A DNA stretch of 61,022 nt, taken from assembly GCF_006345805.1 (NCBI RefSeq), contig NW_021834508.1:1-61022 (forward strand), written 5' to 3'. This document shows positions 6,498-61,022 of this stretch, piece after piece (position 1 is the stretch's first letter; every line of letters begins with the position of its first letter). The position numbers and the translations under genes were made by a program. The DNA is from Octopus sinensis (taxonomy: Eukaryota). The notes under the pieces were generated by a model. That model made no database searches. It was not told where the DNA came from and saw only the letters and a list, made by a program, of their open reading frames with translations.

Positions 6498-7081
6498 TAT
6501 TTCTTTATTGTCCAGACAGAGAGGACAAACAAGGACGGACAAATGGATTAAGTCGATTATATCGACCCCAGTGCGTAACTGGTATTTGATTTATCGACAC
6601 CGAAAGGATGAAAGACAAAGTCGACCCCAGCGGCATTTGAACTCAGAACGTAGCGGCTGACGAAATACCTATTTCTTTACTACCCACAAGGGGCTAAACA
6701 CAGAGAGGACAAACAATGACAGACAAACGGATTACGTCGATTATATCGACCCCAGTGCGTAACTGGTACTTATTTAATCGACCCCGAAAGGATGAAAAGC
6801 AAAGTCGACCTCGGCGGAATTTGAACTCAGAACGTAGCGACAGACGAAATACCTATTTCTTTACTGCCCACAAGGGGCTAAACACAGAGCGGACAAACAA
6901 GGACAGACAAACGGATTAAGTCGATTGTATCGACCCCAGCGCGTAACTGATATTTAATTTATCGACACCGAAAGGATGAAAGGCAAAGTCGACCTCAGCG
7001 GAATTTGAACTCAGAACGTTGCGGCAGACGAAATACCGCTGAGCATTTCGCCTTGCGTGCTAACGATTCTTCCAGCCCGCC
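6498..7081 (-). mobile_element. tRNA-derived SINE family B, head plus tandem body repeats (trimer), 17-bp TSD
   Basis: One head (A box ..CTGG(C)AGAA.., B box GAGTTCAAATTCC), three bodies carrying the (G)CCTTTCATCCTTTCGGGGTCGAT domain, and TSD GCAGTTGTTACGTTTCT at 6481-6497 and 7082-7098. Confidence 0.88.
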
Positions 7082-7636
7082 GCAGTTGTTACGTTTCTAG
7101 TGTGGTTGTGATGTGTTGGCCCTGGTTGTTGTTGTGGCGTTTGTTGTTCTGCTTCTTACATTTGAACTTGTTCTGGATGTGGTTGCAGTTGTGTTTGTTC
7201 TTCCTGTTGTGAGAATTAGTCTTCGGCGCTTTTGTTGTGGTGATTGTTGCGGTGGTTGTTTTTATTGTTGTAGTTGTTGCTCAGATTGTTGTCCTTACTG
7301 TGGGAGTTATTACTTGTGTTGTTGCTGTGTTTGTCGAATACTTTCCTAAGTTGTTAAGACAGTGATTCGCAAACTGTGGGTGTGTCGTTAACTGAGATCT
7401 CGTGCTCCATAGAGTGTAAAAATCTAATTCAAGCCCTCTACAAATCAATTTTCATGCATGAGTGATTTGAAAACCTTGTTATTCATAATTTATTTTTACA
7501 CAAGTGTGAATTATAAATCTAAGGACACAGTTTCGTTTCTATATTATCTTTTTTAAGTTTTAAAATCTAAAGTTGATATATTCAAAATCATGACTATGTA
7601 ATGGCCAATAGAATTTAAAATCTAAAACATTTTGAA

Positions 7637-12434: not shown

Positions 12435-13120
12435 CATATACATATATCTATGTGAATATGTATGTTTATGTATTTTTATATATATCTATGTATGTATTAC
12501 ACGCGTACACATGTTCTCCCTCCAAGTTGTTAGAGACTGGTGAAGTGTTATCCGCGTCAATATATGTTAACTGTGTTATCTCAATGAATTACTGAAAAGA
12601 GAATGTGCAAAGCAGACGAACTGTGTATAATTCTACTACTACTGATTAACCAAGGCACGCTTGAGTGGATTCTTATACGAATATGTCTAGTTAGTTATGT
12701 AGTTATACTTAACCTGATTACAGACGAAGAAACGCATATGTCCAGGTACACATGGGCTCCAAAATGCGTTTAGGCAAACTTCCACGGTATCTTTACATAT
12801 TCATGCGTGTATGCGCGCGTATGTATGTAAGCAAACGTAAAAGAGCGAATGATGTTTGAATACATGCATATACAAACACACATATTTATATATTTATATA
12901 TATATTTACATATATATACTCATATATATATATGTATATAAATATATATATATATATATATATGCTTATGTATATATGCATATATAAATAAATATATATA
13001 CATACACAGATATGTATATATACATATACATAGATATATAGAATATACATATATTAGATATATAGATATATAAATATACGTGTATATATCCATATCTATC
13101 TATCTGTGTGTATATATATA

Positions 13121-13185
<65 letters not shown>

Positions 13186-13244
13186 ATATATATATATACA
13201 CACATACACATATATAGAGAACAAAGTGTATGTACGCCGCTATA

Positions 13245-13651
13245 TACTCTTTCACTTTTTTCAGACATTCGACTGCGGCCATGCGGGAGTAGCGCCTTTA
13301 ATCGAGCAACTCGACCCCGGGACTTATTCTTTTGTAAGTCCAGTACTTATACTATCGATCTTTTGCCGAACCGCTAAGTAACGGGGACATAAACACACCA
13401 GCATCGGTTGTCAAGCAATGCTAGGGGGACAAACACAGACACACAAACACACACACACACACACAGATATATATATATATATATATACGACGGGCTTCTT
13501 TCAGTTTCCGTCTACCAAATCCACTCACAAGGCTTTGGTCGGCCCGAGGCTATAGTAGAAGACACTTGCCCAAGGTGCCACACAGTGGGACTGAACCCGG
13601 TACCATGTGGTTGGTAAACTAGCTACTTACCACACACCCACTTCTCTGCCT
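13245..13651 (-). mobile_element. SINE family A
   Basis: Colinear with the 461-876 copy. Confidence 0.88.
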
Positions 13652-14201
13652 ATATATTTATATATATATATATATATAATACGAAATGGGACAAGAACGC
13701 AAAACATTCAGATGGACGATACAAAAACACGGACGGGTCATTCGAAGCCTTCTATCCTCAGTCAAGAACCGGATCATCCTCACAATTTTGGCTGATTAAT
13801 CTTGCGATTGCTCCAATCTGGCCAGCCCCAAAGAAAGACTAAACTAAGAGCATAAGATTCCTTGGAAGAAATCATCGAATGTATACGAAAACAAGGACGG
13901 AAAAGCAGACGATGTTACACGAATATAAATACAAAATACAATAAAAATAATAATAACAGGACATAACAACAGGTGTCTTTCGACTGGGAACGAATTGAAT
14001 TCAGCTGGCGTGTGTGGAAATGAAGCCTTACGACAGATATACAAAGCTTTCACAAACACAGGGAAGAATATCGATGTTGCACTGACCACGGTCAGACGCA
14101 AAAAGAGGGCTAGCAGTCTGGCCTATTGGTCACGTGCGAAGAGAAGAGATAGAAAAACAGTTAACTCGTTTTGGCTGATATACCCAACGCCATATGCCCA
14201 C

Positions 14202-16900: not shown

Positions 16901-16960
16901 AATAAATAATTTATATACATATATACACAAAAACACACGCACGCATTCGCGCACACACAC

Positions 16961-17330
16961 ATGGATTCACTGAAGCTCCGGCGTCTGGCGACGGATTTGG
17001 TAAACACCCACAAGGTTATCAACCACCTCACCAACAACAACAACACTGAACACCTTTTTGATCTCCATGTGTCTAACACACGTGGACATGCCTACAAAGC
17101 CAGAAAACAACACAGCTCCCATGACTTTCGGAAACATTTTTTCACGCTCAGGGTTGCTGAAGAGTGGAATAAACTGCCTGCGTCAGTTGTTGACTGCCAT
17201 GACACTGCATCCTTTAAGGCCCTCGTGCTTTCCGAAATCCGCCGAAACTACACCTGATTATATATACACTTTACATGAGTTGTAGTGCACCTGAGCACTG
17301 TACACAATTATTATTATTATTTATTATTAT
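16961..17330 (+). mobile_element. 5'-truncated CR1-group LINE (ORF2 C-terminus plus 3' UTR)
   Basis: SLKLRRLATDL..TRGHAYK..RKHFFTLRVAEEWNKLP..FK, a typical CR1 ORF2 end, with an (ATT)n tail. Confidence 0.88.
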
Positions 17331-24999: not shown

Positions 25000-25421
25000 T
25001 ACTCTTTACTCTTTTACTCTTTTACTTGTTTCAGTCATTTGACTGCGGCCATGCTGGAGCACCGCCTTTAGTCGATCAACTCGACCCCGGGACTTATTCT
25101 TTTTGTAAACCCAGTACTTATTCTATCGGTCTCTTTTTGCCGAACCGCTAAGTGACGGGGACGTAAACGCACCAGCATCGGTTGTCAAGCAATGCTAGGG
25201 GAACGAACACAGACACACAAACACACACACACATATATATATATATATACATATATACGACAGGCTTCTTTCAGTTTCCGTCTACCAAATCCACTCACAA
25301 GGCATTGGTCGGCCCGGGGCTATAGCAGAAGACACTTGCCCAAGATGCCACGCAGTGGGACTGAACCCGGAACCATGTGGCTGGTTAGCAAGCTACTTAC
25401 CACACAGCCACTCCTGCGCCT
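25000..25421 (-). mobile_element. SINE family A, followed by a degenerate partial copy at ~25450-25575
   Basis: Full-length match to the family. Confidence 0.9.
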
Positions 25422-30644: not shown

Positions 30645-30850
30645 GTTGAATCGCTAGCTTCTGCACGCATTTTTTTTCTCTCCTTGTTTCTCTCCGTGTT
30701 TCTTTTCTGTGTATCTTTCTGTTGAAGAGCGTAGGCTCGAAACGTAAAAGACTTGTTTTATTTATATTGCTGAGCGCCATACTAATACAATTGTTTGTTT
30801 GTACTCCACCTGCCTTCGTCTTTTGTTTATTTTCATAAAGCTTCCCGTTA
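30645..30850 (+). mobile_element. PLE-like terminal module with a hammerhead-like motif (30714-30751)
   Basis: TCTTT-CTGTTGA-AGAGC GTAG GCTC-GAAA-CGTA-AAAGA. Same family as 33853-34110 (-). Flanked by (TATC)n and (TA)n. Confidence 0.6.
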
Positions 30851-31094: not shown

Positions 31095-31278
31095 GTGACC
31101 TCGTGCATACCGTTGGCGATTTTTTCCTCTGTCTTCCCTCCTCTGAATCTTTCCTTCTCCTATGTTTCCGACGAAGAGCTCCGCCCTGAAACGTTAAACC
31201 CTCCTTCTTTCCTTCTTTCCTGAGCGTCCAATTATACTATAATTGTTCCACGTCCTTTTGTGTTTCTTTGGATGAACT
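31095..31278 (+). mobile_element. PLE-like terminal module with a hammerhead-like motif (31164-31199)
   Basis: GTTT-CCGACGA-AGAGC TCC GCCCT-GAAA-CGTT-AAAC, a pyrimidine-rich tail with CTGAGCG as in the 30.7-kb module, and (TA)n flanks. Confidence 0.55.
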
Positions 31279-32337: not shown

Positions 32338-32737
32338 AGGCGCAGGAGTGGCTGTGTGGTAAGTAGCTTGCTAACCAACACATGGTTCCGAGTTCAGTCC
32401 CACTGCGTGGCATCTTGGGCAAGTGTCTTCTACTATAGCCCCGGGCCGACCAATGCTTGTGAGTGGATTTGGTAGACGGAAACTGAAAGAAGCCTGTCGT
32501 ATATATGTAATATATATATGTGTGTGTGTTTGTGTGTGTTTTGTCCCCCTAGCATTGCTTGACAACCGATGCTGGTGTGTTTACGTCCCCGTCAATTAGC
32601 GGTTCGGCAAAAGAGACCGATAGAATAAGTACTGGGCTTACAAAGAATAAATCCCGGGGTCGATTTGCCCGACTAAAGGCGGTGCTCCAGCATGGCCGCA
32701 GTCAAATAACTGAAACAAGTAAAAGAGTAAAGAGAGT
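32338..32737 (+). mobile_element. SINE family A
   Basis: Full-length match to the family. Confidence 0.9.
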
Positions 32738-33852: not shown

Positions 33853-34110
33853 CAGTGAGAATTTACGAAAAAAATAAAAGACGAAGACGGGATGTATTAG
33901 TTTAACGCTCGGGAAGTGCGAATGTCTTTAACGCTTCGAGCCTACGCTCTTCGACAGAAGATGAAGACAGAAAGAAACAGGGAGAGGAAATAAAGAATGT
34001 GTAGTGGCTAGCGATCTATCATGGCAAATGCCGGACAGAGGGGTCACACAAAAGAGCTAGGAAGAAGGGGATATAATAAAGTAGTGGTGATCCCTAAACG
34101 AAGGTGCTCG
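33853..34110 (-). mobile_element. PLE-like terminal module with a hammerhead-like motif (33925-33961)
   Basis: Reverse strand TCTT-CTGTCGA-AGAGC GTAG GCTC-GAAG-CGTT-AAAGA; homologous to 30645-30850. Confidence 0.6.
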
Positions 34111-36338: not shown

Positions 36339-36592
36339 ACAGAAACAATTCCTATCATAGTAGGTGCATTAGGCATGATAAAAATATCAGACAAATACAT
36401 AACAAAAACACCAGGACTTACAAACACATATAACATGCAGAAAATTGCACTACTAGGCACTGCACACATCCTACGCAGAACACTTTCCATACAATAACCA
36501 TCAGAGCATCACAACAAATCACAGCACATACCCAAGGCACACAGAGCTGCGCTCGGTAGTGAGTGAAGCACGCTATAAAAATAAAACTACTG
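36339..36592 (+). mobile_element. 3' end of a Dong/R4-type (RLE) non-LTR retrotransposon inserted in (TAA)n
   Basis: ETIPIIVGALGMI..MQKIALLGTAHILRRTL* is the characteristic C-terminus of the restriction-like endonuclease domain. Short 3' UTR, (TAA)n on both flanks. Confidence 0.85.
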
Positions 36593-36661
36593 AATAATAA
36601 TAATAATAATAATAATATAATAATAATAATAATAATAATAATGGTAATAATAATAATAATG

Positions 36662-36879: not shown

Positions 36880-37500
36880 CGCCCGGCGTCCTAACGATTC
36901 TACCACCTTGCCACCTTGATATAATAATCCTACCTACTCTAGGCACAAGGCCTGAAATTTTGGGGAAGGGGGCTAGTTTCTTAGATCGACCCCAGTATGC
37001 AACTGGTACTTAATTTATCGACCCCGAAATGATAAAAAGCATTGTTGACCTGCGCAGAATATGAACTCAGATCGTAGCGGCACACAAAGTACCTATTTCT
37101 TTACTACCCACAAGGGGTTAAACACAGAGGGGACAGACAAGGACAGACAAACGGTTTAAGTCGATTACATCGACCCCAGTGCGTAACTGGTACTTAATTT
37201 ATCGACCCCGAAAGGATGAAAAGCAAAGTCGACCTCGGCGGATGTAATCGACTTGATCCGTTTGTCTGTCCTTGTTTGTCCCCTCTGTGTTTAGCTCCTT
37301 GTGGGCAATAAAGAAATAGATATTTCCTCTGCCGTTACGTTCTAAGTTCAAATTCTGCCGAGGTCGACTTTGCCTTTCCTCCTTTCGGGGTGGATTAAAT
37401 AACTATCAGTTACTCAATGGGGTCGATATAATCGACTTAATCCATTTGTCTGTCCTTGTTGTTCACTCTGTGTGTAGCCCCTTGTGGGCAGTAAAGAAGT
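36880..37500. mobile_element. Rearranged SINE family B cluster (minus-strand units fused to plus-strand units)
   Basis: Minus-strand bodies at ~36935-37241, with an orientation switch at GACCTCGGCG|GATGTAATCGAC to plus-strand bodies. Confidence 0.8.
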
Positions 37501-38448
37501 AAGAATCGTCAGAACATTACCCCAAAACTCTATGAAGTATTTATCCTGAATCATCCTATTCAGAGCTCAAATTCCACCAAATCAACTTTGTATTTCAGCT
37601 TTTCTCGAACGATAAAATGTAGAGTCATTCAAATACTGCTCACCATATATTCGACTGTTCTGTTACCTCACCAAATTCCTCACCTTCTTCTAGGAAGTTG
37701 CTGAGGCGACAGAATGTAAAAACCGATAGCGGAAGGCAGTTTCTTTGACGCCTTAAAAATTATTCTGGCGCACAATCATAAATAAAAGCTTCTGATAGAT
37801 TAGCAAAGCTAGTAATATTTCAAAGAAGAGTCTAATCGATAACATCCATTTCTCTGCTTCAATGGTACCGCAGTTTATCGAACCGCTAAAGGATAAAATG
37901 CAGAGGAGATTTCAACATATTTAAACTTAGTATAAGAAAAGACGAAACAGATATTGCAAAACTTTGCATCGCCCTCCTTAATAATTTCTAGTTTTGATGA
38001 AAGGCAAGAAATTTTGATGGTAATTATAAGTCAGGTTTATATCGATTTATGTGCTTGAGTGTCACTTAATTTTCCTTGTCCTGGAGGAATTAAAAGCAAA
38101 GTTGTACTAAGATATAGAGAACCAGAAGTAAATGCTCCTAGCAGTTTTGTTACTTTAATCATCCTGTTCTAATTCAAAAGAGAATTTTACCGATTCTCTC
38201 CTGATGAATGTATAATAAATCTAGTGACAGCTTTGATAATCTTCCACCTCAGTTGTAGATATCGTTCGGAATAAATAAGTTATATCTCATATATAATCGT
38301 GTGAGTGTAAAAACGTGCTTGTGTGGGCCTATCTGTACACGCACAAACAGCCTCACATACATGTGTGTGTGTAAGTGTATATTTACAGATATGTATTCAC
38401 TGTATACACATGCATTGGTGCATAAAAGCATGCATATACGAGCGTGTA

Positions 38449-38497
<49 letters not shown>

Positions 38498-38502
<5 letters not shown>

Positions 38503-38745
38503 GAATAAATGAAAGAATGGAGTCGAACGATGTTAACAAAATTCCTTTACTCTCGACTGTTAACATCTTCGTTCGACTCCATTCTTTCATTTTTCATATA
38601 CAACACACAATTTCTGCACATGAACCCGGATTTCTACCCTTGGACAGGTCGCTTCAACCGTGTTTCTGACGTGAATTTGCTACCCAGGTTTCGGTTAAAC
38701 GAATTTCCATGCTGACGATAAACATAGGATAATTCATTCACCTAT
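38498..38745. repeat. (TA)n-embedded module with a ~45-bp-arm hairpin; related copy at 49297-49403
   Basis: ATGAAAGAATGGAGTCGAACGATGTTAACA pairs with TGTTAACATCTTCGTTCGACTCCATTCTTTCAT. Both module ends recur inverted at 49.3 kb. Confidence 0.8.
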
Positions 38746-38756
38746 ATATATATATA

Positions 38757-38794
<38 letters not shown>

Positions 38795-39243: not shown

Positions 39244-39600
39244 ATGTGTGAGTGTGTGTGTGTCTGTGTAGGCATGTGTTTTTATTTGTGCATGTTGTTT
39301 GTGTTTGTATTTGAGCGTGTGTGTATGTGTACAAACATCCACAAACACACACACACACACACACGCATGTACACACACACACACACACACCACTACTAAC
39401 ACACACACAGGCATGTATATTTGCACTTGGACTTTCGAGGAAGAGACGACTGCGGTACTGATAAAGACACCACTAAGCTTTTACCAACGATTAAATCACG
39501 GACTCTTCCACTTGTATTCAGGTACTTTAATAATGGTTGGCATACATACATCTGTATGTATGCAAATATATATGCACACACGGATATGTGTGTATATCAT

Positions 39601-39660
39601 AATAAAACTCAGTTTCGGATGTCGGGGCGGAAATACTGCTCCGGCATCTCGTCAGTTATT
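39601..39660 (-). ncRNA. Type-I hammerhead ribozyme with a canonical core
   Basis: Reverse strand AATAA-CTGACGA-GATGCCGGAGCAG TATTT CCGCCCCGACATC-C-GAAA-C TGA G-TT-TTATT: 5-bp stem I, intact CUGANGA/GAAA core, 13-position stem II with three mismatches, GUU site. Confidence 0.78.
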
Positions 39661-39926
39661 TATATGTGGATGGTGCAAACTTTGCTCAGAGGATACAGAA
39701 CCCTGAAGATATTGTTGAAAACAATAACATGCAATAAATTTAGAAAAGTTTCAAGCCTATTCGAAGGTTATAATGGACACAGGTTTGTGTGTCACATAGC
39801 TAGCTAGAGGCGATGGCCTCTTGGAACTAATCAACGGCAGCATTCGCCCTATTTTTCTGGACTGCCATATTAGCTTGGCGATAACTTTTAATATATATAG
39901 ATATGTATGTATATATTTATATATGT

Positions 39927-41780: not shown

Positions 41781-42297
41781 TTAGTTAGTTAGTTAGTTAT
41801 TTAGTTAGTTAGTTAATTTGGCTCAAAAGCAAATAGCAAGGCCATGTAGGGGGACATGGAGTTAAGTACAGGGTGGTGTTCATGTAAACAGTTCAGGCCA
41901 CTTGAGGTCCAGGGAGGCTTTGAACAAAGCGGTCGTCGGCATCTTCACCATCTCGTCTGGCAGCTTGTTCCACGGATCCGCAACCCGGACGGAGAAAGCT
42001 CCTCTCCTTCGATTGAGATGAAATCGTCGCAGGTAGAGCTTTTCGGAATGACCCCGCAGCCGACGCTCCGGAGCAGGAGTGAAGAACAGCTCTTTCGAGA
42101 GGTTACACTTCCCGCTTATGATGTTGTGGGCAAGAATGAGATCACCACGGCGGCGGCGTTTTTCAAGAGAATAAAGGTCGAGTGTCCTCAGCATTTCTTC
42201 GTAGGACAAATTTTTGAGACCATGAACCATGCGGGTAGCCAGCTTCTGGACTCTTTCGAGATGCTGTATGTCTTTGAGGAGATAAGGAGAAGAGGCT
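41781..42297 (-). mobile_element. 5'-truncated CR1 LINE with a (TAAC)n tail and TACTAG TSD
   Basis: SPYLLKDIQHLERVQKLATRMVHGLKNLSYEEMLRTLDLYSLEKRRRRGDLI..RGHSEKL..FSVRVADPWNKLP..FKASLD. TSD at 41775-41780 and 42298-42303. Confidence 0.92.
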
Positions 42298-43972: not shown

Positions 43973-44814
43973 AAGGCGTCGAGCTGGCAGAATCGTTAGC
44001 ACACCGGGCGAAATGTTTAGCGGTATTTCGTCTGTCGTTATGTTCTGAGGTCAAACTCTGCGAGGTCGACTTTGCCTTTCGTCCATTCAGGGGTCGATTA
44101 AATAAGTACCAGTTACGCACTGCGGTCGATGTATCTGACTTAAACCTTTGTCTGTCTCTGTTTGTCCCTTCCATGTTTAACTAAATAATATATATTGTTC
44201 CCCTGTGGGCAATTAATATTTTTCTAATTTTAAGTCGGTGGGCTGGCAGAAGCGTTCTGAGTTCATATTCTGCCGGGGTCGACTTTGTCTATCGCCCTTT
44301 CGCGGTCGATTACATAAGTACCAGTTACGCACTGGGGTCGATGTAATCGACTTAATCCGTTTGTCTGTCCTTGTTTGTCCCCTTGTGGGTAATAAAGAAA
44401 TAGGTATTTCGTCTGGCATAAGGCAGAGAGCTGGCAGAAGCGTTAGCACGCCAGGCGAAATGCTTAGCGGTATTTCGTCTGCCGTTACGTTCTGAGTTCA
44501 ATTTTCACCAAGATCGACTTTGCTCTTCATCCTTTCGAGGTCGATTAAATAAGTACGAGTTACGCACTGGGGTCGATATAATCGACTTAATTCGTTTGTC
44601 TGTCCTTGTTTGTCCTCTCTGTGTTTAGCCCCTTGTGGGTAGTAAAGAAATAGGTATTTCGTCTGCCATTACGTTCTGAGTTCAAATTTTACTAAGCTCA
44701 ACTTTGCCTTTCATCCTTTCGGGGTCGATAAATAAAGTACAGTTGCGTACTAGGTTGGATCTAATCGACTGGCCCCATCCACAAAATTTCGGGCCTTGTG
44801 CCTACAGTAGTAAA
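43973..44814 (+). mobile_element. Cluster of SINE family B units
   Basis: Heads at ~43973, ~44232 (deleted) and ~44420, plus tandem bodies joined at AAAGAAATA|GGTATTTCGTCTG. Confidence 0.85.
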
Positions 44815-49220: not shown

Positions 49221-49252
<32 letters not shown>

Positions 49253-49256
49253 TATA

Positions 49257-49295
<39 letters not shown>

Positions 49296-49458
49296 AGTAG
49301 GTGAATGAATTATCCTATGTTTATCGTCAGCATGGAAAATATGTCGAGAGTAAAGGAATTTTGTTACATCTTCGTTCGACTCCATTTTCATTTATATATA
49401 TATATAATATATATAATATATATATATATATATATACTATATATATATATATATATAT

Positions 49459-50330
49459 ATAGGGTGCAATGAATAAACTCTCCTCTCGAATACGCAAAAA
49501 GGAAAATAACACTGAAATCTCATTTTAACAGATATATTTACCAAACCAAAATTACATAGAAATATCTTGTAAGAGTAACGATTAAATGTATTCAATAGAA
49601 TCGCCATTGGCATCAACCACGGCCCCGAGACCACTTCGGAATCTCTTGCAGATTTATGGACGGTCTCCTTGTTTAAGTTGGTGTCTGCTGCCATAATCCT
49701 TGCCCTCAGTTCATCTTTGGTTTTACAAGGGGTTTTGTTGTTCCCTCGCTCACCTGCGCCCCACACATAGTAATCAAGAGGTTTGCAGTCTGAGGAGTTA
49801 GGTGGGCAGATATTAGGGGTGATGTGGTCGTAGAAATTATCTGACTGCCATGACTGGGTTCCCCCGCTTGTGTGGTATGGTGCAGAGCCCTGTTGCCAGA
49901 CATAGGATCTTCCAGCAGCTAACTTCTGGACACAAGGCAGCACTACCTCATCTCGGCGCATGATGTACGCCTCTGCGTTAAGTCTGAGGTTGTGTGGGTA
50001 GATGAAAGGAGGTGGAAAGATGAAAGGAGGCATAACGACTCCATTACTACTGACAACTCCTAACACAATTATGGTGACCGGATGTTTGATTCGATCTCGG
50101 TACATATTCGCGAGGGGATTCCGTTGCATCGTATCGGAGATTCCGTCCCGAATGCCAAGCAGTACAGCATCTCATTTACAAGTTTCTGGCAGAGTGAATT
50201 TTCTAATGGATGCAAAACGGTTCGCCGATTTCATCACATGTTCTTGAAACAGTCGTCCATGCATTTTCACTGGGTTCCTCTTTAAATTCCTCTATGGATT
50301 CCTCTTTAAATTATCTTGAGCTATCCTTTC
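49459..50330 (-). mobile_element. Internally deleted Tc1/mariner-superfamily transposon, DD37D (maT-type)
   Basis: HPVTIIVLGVVSSNGVVMPPFIFP..YVWQQ(G)SAPYH..PPNSSDCKPLDYYVW, with 37 residues between the second (mutated) and third D positions. TA-flanked (C/T)AGGGTG terminus at ~49460; N-terminal remnant DAVLLGIRDG at ~50140-50170. Confidence 0.85.
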
Positions 50331-51192: not shown

Positions 51193-52285
51193 TTTGGTGT
51201 GTATATATTGTGTGAACTTACAGTAGTTTCTTTGAAAACGAAATAAGAACGAAACCTTGATATATTTCCCTTTGTGATAAGAGAAGTGGTCGAAGCAATA
51301 ATTAGGTAGCACGCATGCGTTGATGTGCACACACACAGACATCGGTACGAGCATACATAGACATGAATTAGACCAGGAGAAGAAAATCCATTGGAAGTAA
51401 AGAAGAGGAAAATAAGAGGAAGGAGAAAAAGATGGGAGAAGAATGGGGAAGATGCGGAGGAGATGAAGAAGGAGAAGAAGAAGGAGAAGAAGGAGAAGAA
51501 GACGAAGAAGACGAAGAAGAAGAAGAAGAAGAAGAAGAAGAAGAAGAAGAAGAAAAAGAAAGAAGAAAAAGAAGATGAAGAAGAATAACAAGAAGAAGAA
51601 GAAGAAGATGAAGGAAGAGGAGGAGAAGAAGAAAACGAAGTAGAAGATGACAGAGATGAAGAAGAATGTTATTATTCGAAGGTGAATTGAATGCTAAAAC
51701 GAAAGTAAAATCCTTCATACAGCTGATCATTGATCTAATCGATAAACCCACACAAATGAAAGAAAAGGCTAAACAAAGGTTATTAATCTGGTAGATTAAG
51801 GTTGTGTGTGTCGAACTAAATGTTAAAAGCAAACTTGCAGATATGAATACTCAAGGTGTTTTAGTAATTACTACCAATTATTCTATCAACTGGAAACTAC
51901 ATAAATTGTATAGATTAGATAGGGTCTCACAAGAAGAAAATAGAAAATAACGAATGCGTTCGGAACAGAATACTCATATACCAAAAAATAAGAGGAAAAA
52001 ATATTAGCAGAAACATAAGGTTGAAGAATTCTTTAGGAAGTGGAATAATAGTAATATTTAGCAAAGTAGGAATGAATTGAAAATAAAAGCATGAAGGTAA
52101 ATGTATATGAACAGAAGTTATGATAACAAACAGCCTTCGATAGAATACGGAAATACGAAAGACTATTCCTAAAATGCATTCTGTAAATGTTAGATTAGAA
52201 ACTGCGGGGATTGTCATACATTGCTAAAAAAATAACCCCTTTTTTATTGTTTTTCTAAAATACTGAAGAAGCCTGAATTAATATA

Positions 52286-52635
52286 TATTTCTTTACTACC
52301 CACAAGGGGCTAAAAACAGAGAGGACAAACAAGGACAGACAAACGGATTAAGTCGATTACATTGACCCCAGTGCGTAACTGGTACTTAATTTATCGACCC
52401 CGAAAGGATGAAAGGCAAAGTCGACCTCGACGGAATTTGAACTCAGAACATAAAGACAGACGAAATACCTATTTCTTTACTACCCACAAGGTGCTAAACA
52501 CAGAAAGGAAAAACAAGGACAGACAAACGGATTAAGTCGATTACATCGACCCCAGTGCGTAACTGGTACTTAATTTATCGACCCCGAAAGGATGAAAGGC
52601 ACAGTGGACCTCGGCGGAATTTGAACCCAGAACGT
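52286..52635 (-). mobile_element. SINE family B headless dimer
   Basis: Two bodies joined at CAGACGAAATACC|TATTTCTTTAC. Confidence 0.85.
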
Positions 52636-53599
52636 ATAAACATACTTCCATTGGTGTGTTTTTGAAAGCACACATGACTAGAAGATAAAAACGAAGGCTA
52701 TTTATTTAATCACTAAACAACCCTAAAGTGTTCATACGAAAAATTTAAGTAAAATATATGCGAAGTTTAATCACAACAGATTAAGAGCAGAATATGTGAA
52801 TTTAGAGATTAAAAACGTATGAAATACTTTCTAATTTTTGGTGTTGTGGTCGATCTGTTTCTGCTTTTATTTAATTACGACATAAATTTCATTTTTGCCA
52901 AACAGAAATTTGACAGAAACACAGAAAGGAAGCAAATTATAAAAATTAAGAGCTGGTTATGTAAATACGATAACGAAATGATAAAAAGAAATTGTTTATA
53001 GCTGATTATTATATAATTATTAAAGAAAACAGACTGTAATAACGAGACAAACCGAGTTTGTTTATATTTGTGACTGCGACGAAATAATGTCATTCAGAAG
53101 AAAAGGAAAAACAAATTCACACACACACACAAAAAGCAGATCTCGGTGAATTGCAAAGAGACCATATTTCGAGACATACTAATTTACAATGTCTCAAATA
53201 GTTTTCTGATTTGTTATCAGAAAGAAAAAAACAAAAAGAAAAATAGAGTGGAACAAGAGAAACAATGGCTACTAATCAAGCGGTCAGCGTTTTAGACTTT
53301 AAGGAAAATTTGAATGAATGGAAGCCAAGTAAAAGAGCGGAAAGGAGATGACCAAGTTGTGGGCATTGCAGACACAGACAATCGTTCTAATACTGATGGC
53401 CTGGGGAATGACAAAAATCAATGAAATGGAGAACGTTGTATACACAATGTGTTAGGAGATGCATACGGAAATGGCGTACGACAGCGCTGACGGCCCTGTT
53501 GCTTGCGTTACATAGTGTACATTCAGACGGAAAGTAAAAGCATAAAATCTACACACAAATAAAACTACATGAAACCCCCTCCCCCCACACGAAATCACA

Positions 53600-56495: not shown

Positions 56496-56758
56496 TATGC
56501 GCGTATTTTCCCTTGTTAAAAATTAACGCGAAAAAAAATCTTTAAATAGTAATCAAGGCGGTGCTTCAGCATGGTCACAGTCATATGACTGAAACAAGTA
56601 AAAGAGTAAAAGAGAGAGTAAAGAGTACCAAAAAATCACACAAGTAAAAGGGTGTAACTCCTTGTTTTTAAAGCTTGAAAATCTGGGTTTACGTGAAATA
56701 TTTTGTATAATAAGTAAATAGATGGAGTTAAACACAGGTGTTATTCAAATTATTTTAC

Positions 56759-56843
56759 CTCCGACACATGTTTCGAAGATATCATTGGTATTACTCCAAT
56801 GGAATGAAATGGAGTAAAACAATGTAATCTTCTCTTCATGGAA
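56759..56843 (-). ncRNA. Hammerhead-like motif with an extended stem II (C3 position is A)
   Basis: Reverse strand TTCC-ATGAAGA-GAAGAT..CATTG..TTACTCCA loop TGGAGTAA..CAATG..ATCTTC-GAAA-C ATGT G-TC-GGAG; GUC site and palindromic ACATGT in stem III. Confidence 0.68.
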
Positions 56844-56893
56844 ATGAAGAAATGAAACTCACGAGTAAGATATTTTAACAGAATATGATGGAT

Positions 56894-57305
56894 AGGCGTA
56901 GGAGTGGCTGTGTGGTAAGTAGCTTGTTTACCAACCACATGGTTCCAGGTTCAGTCCCACTGCGTGGCATCTTGGGCAAGTGTCTTCTACTATAGCCTCG
57001 GGCCGACCAAAACCTTTGTGAGTGGATTTGGCAGACGGAAACCGAAAGAAGCCCGTCGTATATATGTATATATGTGTGTGCGTGTATGTTTGTGTGTCTG
57101 TGTTTGTCCCCCTAGAATTGCTTGACAACCGATGCTGGTGTGTTTATGTCCCCGTCACTTAGCGGTTCGGCAAAAGAGACCGATAGAATAAGTACTGGGC
57201 TTACAAAAGAATAAGTCCCGGGGTCGATTTGCTCGATTAAAGGCGGTGCTCCAGCATGCCCACAGTCAAATGACTGAAACAAGTAAAAGAATAAAGAGTA
57301 AAGAG
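56894..57305 (+). mobile_element. SINE family A inserted within a PLE-like module
   Basis: Full-length match, lying between the inverted copies at 56720-56770 and 57836-57888. Confidence 0.9.
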
Positions 57306-57907
57306 ATATGTGTAGTGATTAACTGAACGCAATTAAGTACAGGGTTTAATAAATTAATTTGGTATCTAAAAGACCACAATAAACAATTTTTATTTAGACT
57401 GGTTGATTCTCTCAATTTCGATAGCTTATGGTAAAGGAATTCTGTCTTCTCTGTAATTTTGAACTATCTTTCTTTTTTCTAAAAATTCTCTTGTAAACAC
57501 GGCGATGGAGCGTGCACACCGATGTAAATATTGGCAGAAACACACCTTTTGTTCATAGAAGTGATATCTATCATATATTATTTAATTTTCTTCTTACATT
57601 TCACATTCACTTGATATATCTTTTCCCAAGACAATGGGGTTTCATTTAATTTACATATCCTTATATGCTTCTCATTTATTTGGGGTTTTTTCTTTCCTCT
57701 ACCCCTCCTCTTTCTATAGGCTACCTTTGACATTATATCCTCCAACGCTTTTTTTAAAAAACAAACCTAATAACGTTCACTTATACATATCCATCATTTT
57801 CTGTTAAAATGGCTTATTGACGAGTTTCATTTCTTCATGTGTCGAAAGTAAAATAATTTGAATAACACCTGCGTTTAAATCCATTTATGCATACATACAT
57901 ACATACA

Positions 57908-58689: not shown

Positions 58690-59199
58690 ATATAATATAT
58701 ATATAATAATATATATATATGTATATTATATCTCCACATGCGAATGTATCTAAGTATAGATATACAGTTTGGGCAATTATGTTTAATTGGTGGAAGGTAA
58801 TGAGTTACAGAGTCCTAATTGCCTATCTCTAGTAATGGAATGCCTAATGGACAATGATAATCTCCGTGTGTTTCGGTGTAGGTGAGGTGTGAGTGGGGGG
58901 GCGAAGGAATTCTAAAGAACGCGTAAAGAGGTGTAAGAGTTCCTGGCTTAATTTTCCGGTGTAATCTGATTAGATCTTGTGAGATGTGAAAATGTGGGTA
59001 AAGTGTTGACAAATGAGAGGACGATGACGAAGCGGGTGACTACGAGGATGATGACGATGACGAACAAGAGGCTGGCGATGACGTCAACGATGACATAGAT
59101 GTTGGTTTGGGCGATGACCTTGGAGATGGTGATGTTCATATTGGTGACGATAAAAACGATAATAACGATGAAGAAGTGGAAGATAATAAGGATCATGAT

Positions 59200-60216
59200 G
59201 TTGGTGATGATGAGAAGGAACAGGAAGGGTGGATGGATCGGGTGGAAGAGGAAGGGGTGGAAGAAGAAAAAGAAAGAGGAAGGGAACGGTAGTGGGTAAT
59301 ATTGATGATGATAATTAAGGTGATGGTGATGATGATGATGGTGATGATGTTGGCGATGATGAGAAGGAACAGGAAGGGTGGATCGGGTGGAAGAGGAAGG
59401 GGTGGAAGAAGAAAAAGAAAGAGAAAGGGAACGGTAGTGGTAATATTCATGATGAAAATTAGGGTGACGGTGATGATGATGATGGTGATGATGTTGGTGA
59501 TGATGAGAAGGAACAGGAAGGGTGGATGGATCGGGTGGAAGAGGAAGAGGTGGAAGAAGAAAAAGAAAGAGAAAGGGAACGGTAGTGGTAATATTGATGA
59601 TGATAATTAGGGTGACGGTGATGATGATGATGGTGATGATGTTGGCGATGATGAGAAGGAACAGGAAGGGTGGATCGGGTGGAACAGGAAGGGGTGGAAG
59701 AAGAAAAAGAAAGAGGAAGGGAACGGTAGTGGTAATATTGATGATGATAATTAGGGTGATGGTGATGGTGATGATGGTGATGATGTTGGCGATGATGAGA
59801 AGGAAGAGGAAGGGTGGATCGGGTGGAACAGGAAGGGGTGGAAGAAGAAAATTAAAGAGGAAGGGAACGGTAGTGGTAATATTGATGATGATAATTAGGG
59901 TGATGGTGATGATGATGATGGTGATGATGTTGGCGATGATGAGAAGGAACAGGAAGGGTGGATCGGGTGGAAGAGGAAGGGGTGGAAGAAGAAAAAGAAA
60001 GAGGAAGGGACCGGTAGTGGTAATATTGATGATGATAATTAGGGTGATGGTGATGATGATGATGGTGATGATGTTGGCGATGATGAGAAGGAACAGGAAG
60101 GGTGGATCGGGTGGAAGAGGAAGGGGTGGAAGAAGAAAAAGAAAGAGAAAGGGAACGGTAGTGGTAATATTGATGATGAAAATTAGGGTAATGGTAATGA
60201 TGATGATGGTGATGAT
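59200..60216. repeat. 144-bp minisatellite, 7 copies, inside a (GAT)n low-complexity region (58990-60860)
   Basis: Unit starts at 59200, 59349, 59493, 59641, 59785, 59929 and 60073. Confidence 0.93.
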
Positions 60217-60512
60217 GATCATGATTATGAGGAAGAGAATGAAGATGATGATAATGATGATGTTGACAACGACAACGATTATGACCTTGATGATTAGGAG
60301 GAGAAAGACAACGAAGACGATGATGATGATGATGTCGATGTTGATGATAATAATTATGATGACGACGATGACGATGATAATGGTGATAAGGATGATGATG
60401 TTGTTGTTGATGATGATGATGTTGTTGTTGATGATGATGATGACTATGATGATGATGATGATGATGATGACGACGACGATAATGGAGATAATGATGATGA
60501 TGTTGGTAATGG

Positions 60513-60543
<31 letters not shown>

Positions 60544-60545
60544 AG

Positions 60546-60580
<35 letters not shown>

Positions 60581-61022
60581 AGGAGAAAGACAACGATGAT
60601 GATAATAATTAAAATGACGACGACGATAATGGAGATAATGATGATGTTGGTAGTGATGATGCCGATGACGATGGCGATAATAATAATGATGATGATGATG
60701 ATGATGATGAAGATGATGATGTTGACAATGACGATGATAATAATGATGATGGTGATGATGATGATAGTAATAATAATGATGTTGATGCTGATGATGATGA
60801 TGACGACATCGACGATACGGGTGATAATGATGATGATAATGGCATTGATATTGCTAGTATCGATAATATGTATGTGGTGGTGGGGGCCCGGGGTTTGTGA
60901 CGTTGTTTATCGTCAATAAATCAATGCTTGCATCTGATGAGATATTTTATCGATCTGACGTGAATCGAACTCGCAATGTATATTACGCAAATCATGAAGG
61001 ATGTTGATAATAAGTAGGTGAT

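Follow-up and report, generated by a model that had tools for sequence, protein, structure and literature searches.

Hammerhead motifs are carried in their thousands by metazoan genomes, with about 2,000 reported for Schistosoma and 9,000 for Xenopus (PMC4209133) and over 6,000 for Acropora and about 5,000 for a mussel (PMC7229834). In the Penelope-like retroelements of metazoans, these ribozymes have a long helix II, a helix I of 4–5 bp and a palindromic helix III, and most of them stand as single motifs derived from truncated elements. One Penelope motif that was tested was inactive as a monomer and of low activity as a dimer (PMC4209133). The consensus published for them reads CUGANGAH-G...C-GAAAN-palindrome-NUH, and a bulged helix II is known from the Penelope hammerheads of D. 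virilis (PMC4209133). By our own count of the alignment in that article, an extra base follows A9 in 54 of the 56 rows and is lacking in two, U17 is found in 24 rows including all three from molluscs, the Hydra row has a loop III of 3 nt and one of the 56 entries in the GAAA column reads AGAAA, this last row not being safely assignable. Dimer-type architecture is known for metazoan type I hammerheads (PMC4209133, PMC6765202, PMC3088659), and natural hammerheads tolerate a stem II of 1–2 bp and some insertions (PMC3088659). The Poseidon hammerhead of Anolis is described as cleaving only with the protein of its element and as dispensable for insertion in vitro (PMC11167929). For Octopus vulgaris, a 2026 annotation describes 31 Penelope-like families as recently active, together with an expansion of greater age, and does not mention hammerheads in its main text (PMC13282606). 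No paper devoted to octopus hammerheads was found among the matches listed for literature pairing hammerhead with octopus or cephalopod, and a genome-wide catalogue would therefore fill a modest gap.

The DNA analysed here, referred to as the window, is a stretch of 61,022 nt from Octopus sinensis (contig NW_021834508.1). It is repeat-rich animal DNA with a GC content of about 35%. The minus strand of positions 39601–39660 was identified as a type I hammerhead motif of the dimer type, with stem I open and three stems arranged round the core (Table 1). A hammerhead had been proposed at this position in an earlier note, and most of its anatomical description was confirmed: the core nucleotides CUGACGA, GAAA and GUU are all present on the minus strand, stem I pairs AAUAA with UUAUU, stem II is long with three mismatches that are all A-C (beside ten Watson-Crick pairs) and the site predicted for cleavage after GUU is right. 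Of the features required of a type I hammerhead, the CUGANGA and GAAA boxes, the UH triplet and A15.1-U16.1 are found, whereas G10.1-C11.1 closing an uninterrupted stem II directly beside A9 and G12 is not, since one C is in excess whichever register is used. A frame of 12 codons (39609–39647, minus strand) opens with an AUG where stem II starts (39647) and is ended by the UGA of loop III, possibly by chance.

Table 1. Coordinates of the hammerhead motif at 39601–39660, of its parts and of related features in the window.
Feature	Position	Strand	Remarks
Hammerhead motif, probable decayed solo copy	39601..39660	-	core, stems and descriptor match
Stem I, 5' strand AAUAA	39660-39656	-	5 A-U pairs with 39605-39601
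Stem I, 3' strand UUAUU	39605-39601	-	
Core CUGACGA (C3-U4-G5-A6-C7-G8-A9), intact	39655-39649	-	no extra base after A9
Stem II hairpin, 13 positions	39618..39648	-	arms 39648-39636 and 39630-39618, loop UAUUU
A-C mismatches of stem II	39644/39622, 39640/39626, 39637/39629	-	G-U on the plus strand
Extra C between stem II and G12	39617 (or 39618, bulged after G10.1-C11.1, in the other register)	-	
Core GAAA (G12-A13-A14-A15.1)	39616-39613	-	
Helix III, 2 bp (A15.1-U16.1, C15.2-G16.2)	39607..39613	-	closes UGA loop; C-UGA-G at 39612-39608
GUU triplet	39608-39606	-	U16.1 = 39607, U17 = 39606
Predicted scissile bond	between 39606 and 39605	-	
Degenerate TA/CA simple-repeat tract	39541..39599	.	directly 3' of the motif
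Penelope-type minimal hammerhead remnant	30714-30751 (motif +30719)	+	
Penelope-type minimal hammerhead remnant	33926-33960 (motif -33957)	-	
Penelope-type minimal hammerhead remnant	31164-31199 (motif +31168)	+	
Long-stem hammerhead, C3A	56757-56845 (motif -56839)	-	palindromic helix III, GUC site

A search for the exact CUGANGA...GAAA...UH core together with stems I and II returned 39601–39660 as the single such site in the window. Among a strict hammerhead descriptor, a Penelope-type descriptor (with an extra base permitted only after A9) and one widened to permit a 3' extra base, it was matched only by the last; the first two had no matches in the window, which for this motif is due to the extra C at the foot of stem II. 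The chance of such a match was assessed using 400 block-wise dinucleotide shuffles of the whole window, in which the two stricter descriptors matched none and a loose one matched 18. The widened descriptor matched 1 of the 400, a figure that is somewhat optimistic as the descriptor was widened after the motif had been seen, and one whose significance is deflated as six further pairs of stem II are ignored by it. The motif at 39601 is taken to be hammerhead-derived, and a chance origin is unlikely. None of the hammerhead families of Rfam was matched at the gathering score in the whole window, nor was any hammerhead present among the 16 matches at E<=10 in 39400–39860 or the two in 39596–39666; a search with Rfam Hammerhead_1, the check that the earlier note had suggested, thus left the motif unmatched even at this permissive level.

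The extra C has consequences for the predicted folding. G10.1 can pair either with C39618, leaving C39617 unpaired, or with C39617, leaving C39618 bulged. In the minimum-energy fold C7 pairs with G12, G8 with C39617 and C3/U4 with helix III, and the core is predicted to be trapped in this misfold. With stems I and II formed, opening of the core was calculated to cost 7.2 or 9.3 kcal/mol by register and 4.7 kcal/mol once the extra C was removed in silico, against 2.8, 6.5, 9.4 and 6.2 kcal/mol for four other motifs of the window (the lowest value being that of the A6U motif at 30719, which has a core substitution), and these costs are informative only by comparison since nearest-neighbour models penalise all hammerhead junctions.

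Since the three mismatches of stem II are all A-C on the ribozyme strand, it is the antisense hairpin that is the more stable. This hairpin is fully paired on the plus strand with an energy of -21.2 kcal/mol, compared with -9.3 kcal/mol on the minus strand (z of -7.05 and -3.07, respectively), and the folding energies of the 60-mer are -24 and -13 kcal/mol. Such asymmetry follows from decay alone, since a Watson-Crick pair hit by any transition becomes A-C on one strand and G-U on the opposite one, and the three mismatches are in keeping with the transition-type decay that had been proposed for this stem. That all three of the three are A-C on the ribozyme strand, with no G-U, has a probability of 1/8 under neutral transitions and is weak evidence if taken alone. 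Selection on the ribozyme would favour G-U on its own strand, and the pattern observed would thus fit neutral decay and argue against preserved function. Decay of CpG sites was considered as the cause of the mismatches and was not favoured, the observed/expected CpG ratio in the window being 0.93 and only one of the three sites having a CpG-type context.

Positions 15.1 to 16.1 are self-complementary at six of seven places, with a central G-G, and would form a duplex of -7.8 kcal/mol over 11 nt. A self-complementary helix III of this kind is what a dimer would be expected to show. Pairing of two copies via helix III is predicted at -33.8 kcal/mol, compared with 2 x -13.0 kcal/mol for the copies alone, in an over-paired register without stem I. 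No partner copy was found in the 61 kb window by nhmmer, which returned the motif and its own reverse strand only, and the best non-self match in the window among those listed by blastn-short was of 11 nt (E 0.7). In a self-BLAST of the window, 0 of 231 rows covered the motif, with no copies of its flanks and no second pLTR, and none of 18 rows of tandem arrays lay over 39601–39660. Outside the window, the family pattern had no matches in prokaryote genomes, where a relaxed extra-C pattern had 30 matches against 31 expected, none of the 30 having GUH plus stem I. The motif was unmatched in phage records, and three words taken from it had no occurrences in one supplement file of PMC8557442. A protein database query with the plus-strand frame across the motif, which was aimed at spurious gene models of other copies (frames across the motif being treated as non-coding), gave no match among three candidates at E<=10.

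The TA/CA tract is the likely insertion context of the motif. A Pfam scan was performed on the 282 frames of at least 55 aa in the window. Only five of these had any family, namely Tc1 transposase (two pieces), zf-RVT (one piece) and two weak matches that scored below the cut-off, and there was no convincing host exon among the 282. None of them matched the reverse transcriptase or GIY-YIG families of Penelope. As no frame of this type, second pLTR or shared flank was found in the window, the link of the motif to Penelope is by architecture only.

Several other repeats were observed in the window. The Tc1-type transposase pieces and the zf-RVT LINE piece lie in the regions 974–1419, 1842–2558 and 49440–50171, of which the minus-strand frame at 49440–50171 looks by eye like a further transposase fragment and has no Pfam match. 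At 41883–42296 (minus strand) there is a 3' fragment of a LINE ORF with 94% identity over its full length to a protein labelled Octopus vulgaris (one match among 37 candidates), and a fragment at 16910–17254 looks similar to it. A short coding-like stretch at 36340–36600 lies between (TAA)n tracts and looks similar to the 3' end of a putative Dong-R4-like LINE. Two abundant families of dispersed SINE-like repeats, of 200–420 nt and 75–95% identity, occur at about 471–882, 6498–7083, 13083–13678, 25012–25421, 32338–32731, 36981–37501, 44022–44770, 52280–52645 and 56888–57306, and a tandem array with a unit of about 145–150 nt and a strong GC skew occupies 59179–60837.

If the motif at 39601 is a decayed Penelope remnant, its small value would be as a sign that several Penelope-type hammerhead families are present in the window. 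The three minimal remnants +30719, -33957 and +31168 can be aligned with one another, and this alignment takes in their U-rich 5' flanks and their 3' tails, which end in (TA)n; all three have an extra base after A9, lack a helix III loop and end in CG-UH, and they fit the published Penelope consensus directly (PMC4209133). Two of the three carry A6U, which may therefore be a family feature, while stem II is damaged in the third, which has U4C. A distance of 449 nt separates the plus-strand copies at 30719 and 31168, whose ACGU palindromes might allow them to pair in cis. About 1 kb from the long-stem hammerhead at 56757–56845, an inverted partial copy of it was observed at 57788–57888 (plus strand) without the ribozyme body. 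The earlier note had held that the motif at 39601 anchors the interpretation of such variants, a view that we do not share: the variant motifs have no sequence in common with it and can be interpreted alone, from their mutual alignment and the Penelope consensus (PMC4209133).

Other hammerhead-like words were also encountered. A two-copy element between (TA)n tracts, at 38450–38791 and 49248–49451, carries a CUGACGA half-core, and its copy at 38.5 kb has an inverted duplication and an insert bearing more hammerhead-like words on both strands. At 39703–39726 (plus strand), 43 nt from the motif and diverging from it, CUGAAGA is followed by a perfect hairpin of 7 bp, the longest among the 29 CUGANGA sites; this was considered as a second hammerhead and rejected, the GAAA box being missing after the hairpin.

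The reading that we prefer, with a probability of roughly 70%, is that the motif at 39601 is a decayed and truncated solo remnant of a dimer-type hammerhead from the pseudo-LTR of a retroelement, most likely a Penelope-like one, and that it is probably inactive. The anatomy, the extra C and the occurrence as a single copy in the window are direct observations and the misfold is a computed result, while the Penelope origin, the decay history and the loss of activity are inferred. This reading is favoured by the type I topology with a self-complementary helix III, by the precedents for U17 and for a 3-nt loop III in the published alignment, by the Penelope-like families of O. vulgaris and by the three minimal remnants in the window. 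The missing element body, the lack of an extra base after A9, the A-rich 5' flank and the tolerance of natural hammerheads for a weak stem II and some insertions speak against it. In the parent element, the minus strand would have been the transcribed strand, and two tandem copies would have paired via the near-palindromic helix III to give an active dimer, possibly aided by the protein of the element. This dimer would have cut after GUU, with G12 as the base and the 2'-OH of G8 as the acid, in line with the chemistry described for hammerhead cleavage (PMC6155905). A short truncated solo insertion would then have been left in AT-rich simple-repeat octopus DNA and would have decayed since, gaining three transitions and, at the foot of stem II, probably an indel of one base. 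As G8 and C7 can be drawn into pairing with stem II by the extra C, and no partner copy lies nearby, little or no cleavage would be expected in vivo, and the three mismatches, the extra C and the missing partner together suggest that this copy is probably silent. By our estimate, it is quite unlikely that a monomer would cleave measurably at 1 mM Mg2+; an engineered dimer might do so at high Mg2+, with the odds somewhat against it.

The most serious competitor is that nothing has decayed here and that a family of octopus retroelements constantly carries the 3' extra C, bulged after G10.1-C11.1, in which case the copy could still cut itself as a dimer or with the aid of a protein. Both the additional C and the A-C pairs may indeed be features of such a family. 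The core bases are all intact, a bulged helix II has its precedent in D. virilis Penelope hammerheads (PMC4209133), the requirement of Poseidon for a protein means that poor predicted folding does not exclude activity, and the AUG at the start of stem II recalls the ORF of Poseidon, closing here after 12 codons (PMC11167929). Such an intact variant is nonetheless unlikely given three A-C and no G-U mismatches on what would be the functional strand, an opening cost of 9.3 kcal/mol in the register with C39618 bulged, the lack of a partner in the window and the prokaryotic extra-C matches, which number as expected by chance and include no complete hammerhead among the 30. Rather less probable again is a solo monomer of a non-LTR retrozyme, that is, of the canonical type I hammerheads in tandem repeats of 150–400 bp that give circular RNA. 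Like the canonical motifs, this one lacks the extra base after A9 and has its helix III closed; the retrozymes of the mussel lack most of the bases of the tertiary contact (PMC7229834), solo monomers are a recognised category and an origin of retrozymes from Penelope pLTRs has been proposed (bioRxiv 10.64898/2026.07.22.740005). It is set against this that no tandem array or flank copy occurs at the motif in the window, that stem II has 13 positions where about 4 bp are usual and that Rfam Hammerhead_1 finds no match.

It could also be argued that there is no ribozyme, only a plus-strand hairpin or short inverted duplication lying beside coincidental core-like words. The far better folding of the plus strand, the lack of an Rfam match and the widening of the descriptor after the fact all speak for this, yet the hairpin is adjoined by ten invariant bases of the core, by helix III, by UH and by stem I, each in its correct place, only one in 400 shuffles did as much and the asymmetry of the strands is explained by decay alone, which makes this reading very improbable. 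The least credible proposal, for which we see almost no chance, is that the A-C mismatches are ADAR targets and that A-to-I editing rebuilds stem II and switches self-cleavage on in octopus. All three mismatches do place an A opposite a C on the ribozyme strand, edited adenosines of coleoids are enriched in A-C mismatches (PMC8891338) and cephalopods are heavy editors (PMC5663115). Two of the three adenosines, on the other hand, have a 5' G, a disfavoured neighbour (PMC5663115), the duplex has just 13 positions and neutral decay would give the same orientation with p = 1/8. Reading A as G stabilised the hairpin but left the opening cost unchanged (7.16 and 9.25 kcal/mol), and editing as a rescue of the ribozyme was rejected on these folding results.

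On the decayed-remnant reading, the motif is one decayed copy of an ordinary and well-known kind, of which metazoan genomes hold thousands, and it matters little. Its importance would grow if a whole family shared the extra C and could cleave despite it, or if the stem were under the control of editing; the latter, if true, would mean that a ribozyme is switched by editing in nature, among the animals that edit most. As to its rank among the hammerheads of the window, it had been put forward as the best-preserved canonical one. The first half of this stands, in that it is the sole motif with an unmutated core and both stems, but with an extra C before G12 it is not canonical, and it neither matches Rfam nor fits a helix II of 4 bp with a loop-loop contact. 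That it should be the motif most likely to self-cleave is doubtful: its decay argues against function, its 2-bp helix III is of the dimer type while the partner is absent from the 61 kb and the opening of its core is predicted to be costlier than that of the A6U motif at 30719 (7.2–9.3 versus 2.8 kcal/mol).

When compared with the canonical type I hammerheads and non-LTR retrozymes of metazoans, such as those of the newt satellite and of Schistosoma (PMC7229834), the motif at 39601 shares the type I core, a helix III of 2 bp with a small near-palindromic loop and the expectation of dimer cleavage, and it differs by its extra C and by the lack of an Rfam match and of a tandem repeat. Retrozymes have a helix I of about 6 bp, a helix II of about 4 bp and a contact between loops 1 and 2, which, judged from its anatomy, the motif with its 13-position stem II does not share. 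The Poseidon (PAc) hammerhead of Anolis carolinensis is similar in having an AUG, the start of its ORF, at the start of stem II (PMC11167929), whereas at 39601 the frame closes in loop III with simple repeats behind it, and a helix III loop is present. From the pLTR hammerheads of Penelope elements it differs in that a C is added on the 3' side of stem II and no base after A9, in a stem II of 13 positions with three A-C pairs rather than 7–8 bp and in an A-rich rather than U-rich 5' flank, and no element body was found beside it. It is best filed among decayed hammerheads, with a probable origin from Penelope, and not as a proven member. It is with these pLTR hammerheads that it has most architecture in common, namely the type I topology, the CUGANGA and GAAA boxes, G10.1-C11.1, a long helix II, a helix I of 5 bp, a short self-complementary helix III, U17, dispersed solo occurrence and an AU-rich 3' flank, and like them it would work, or would once have worked, as a dimer-type type I hammerhead.
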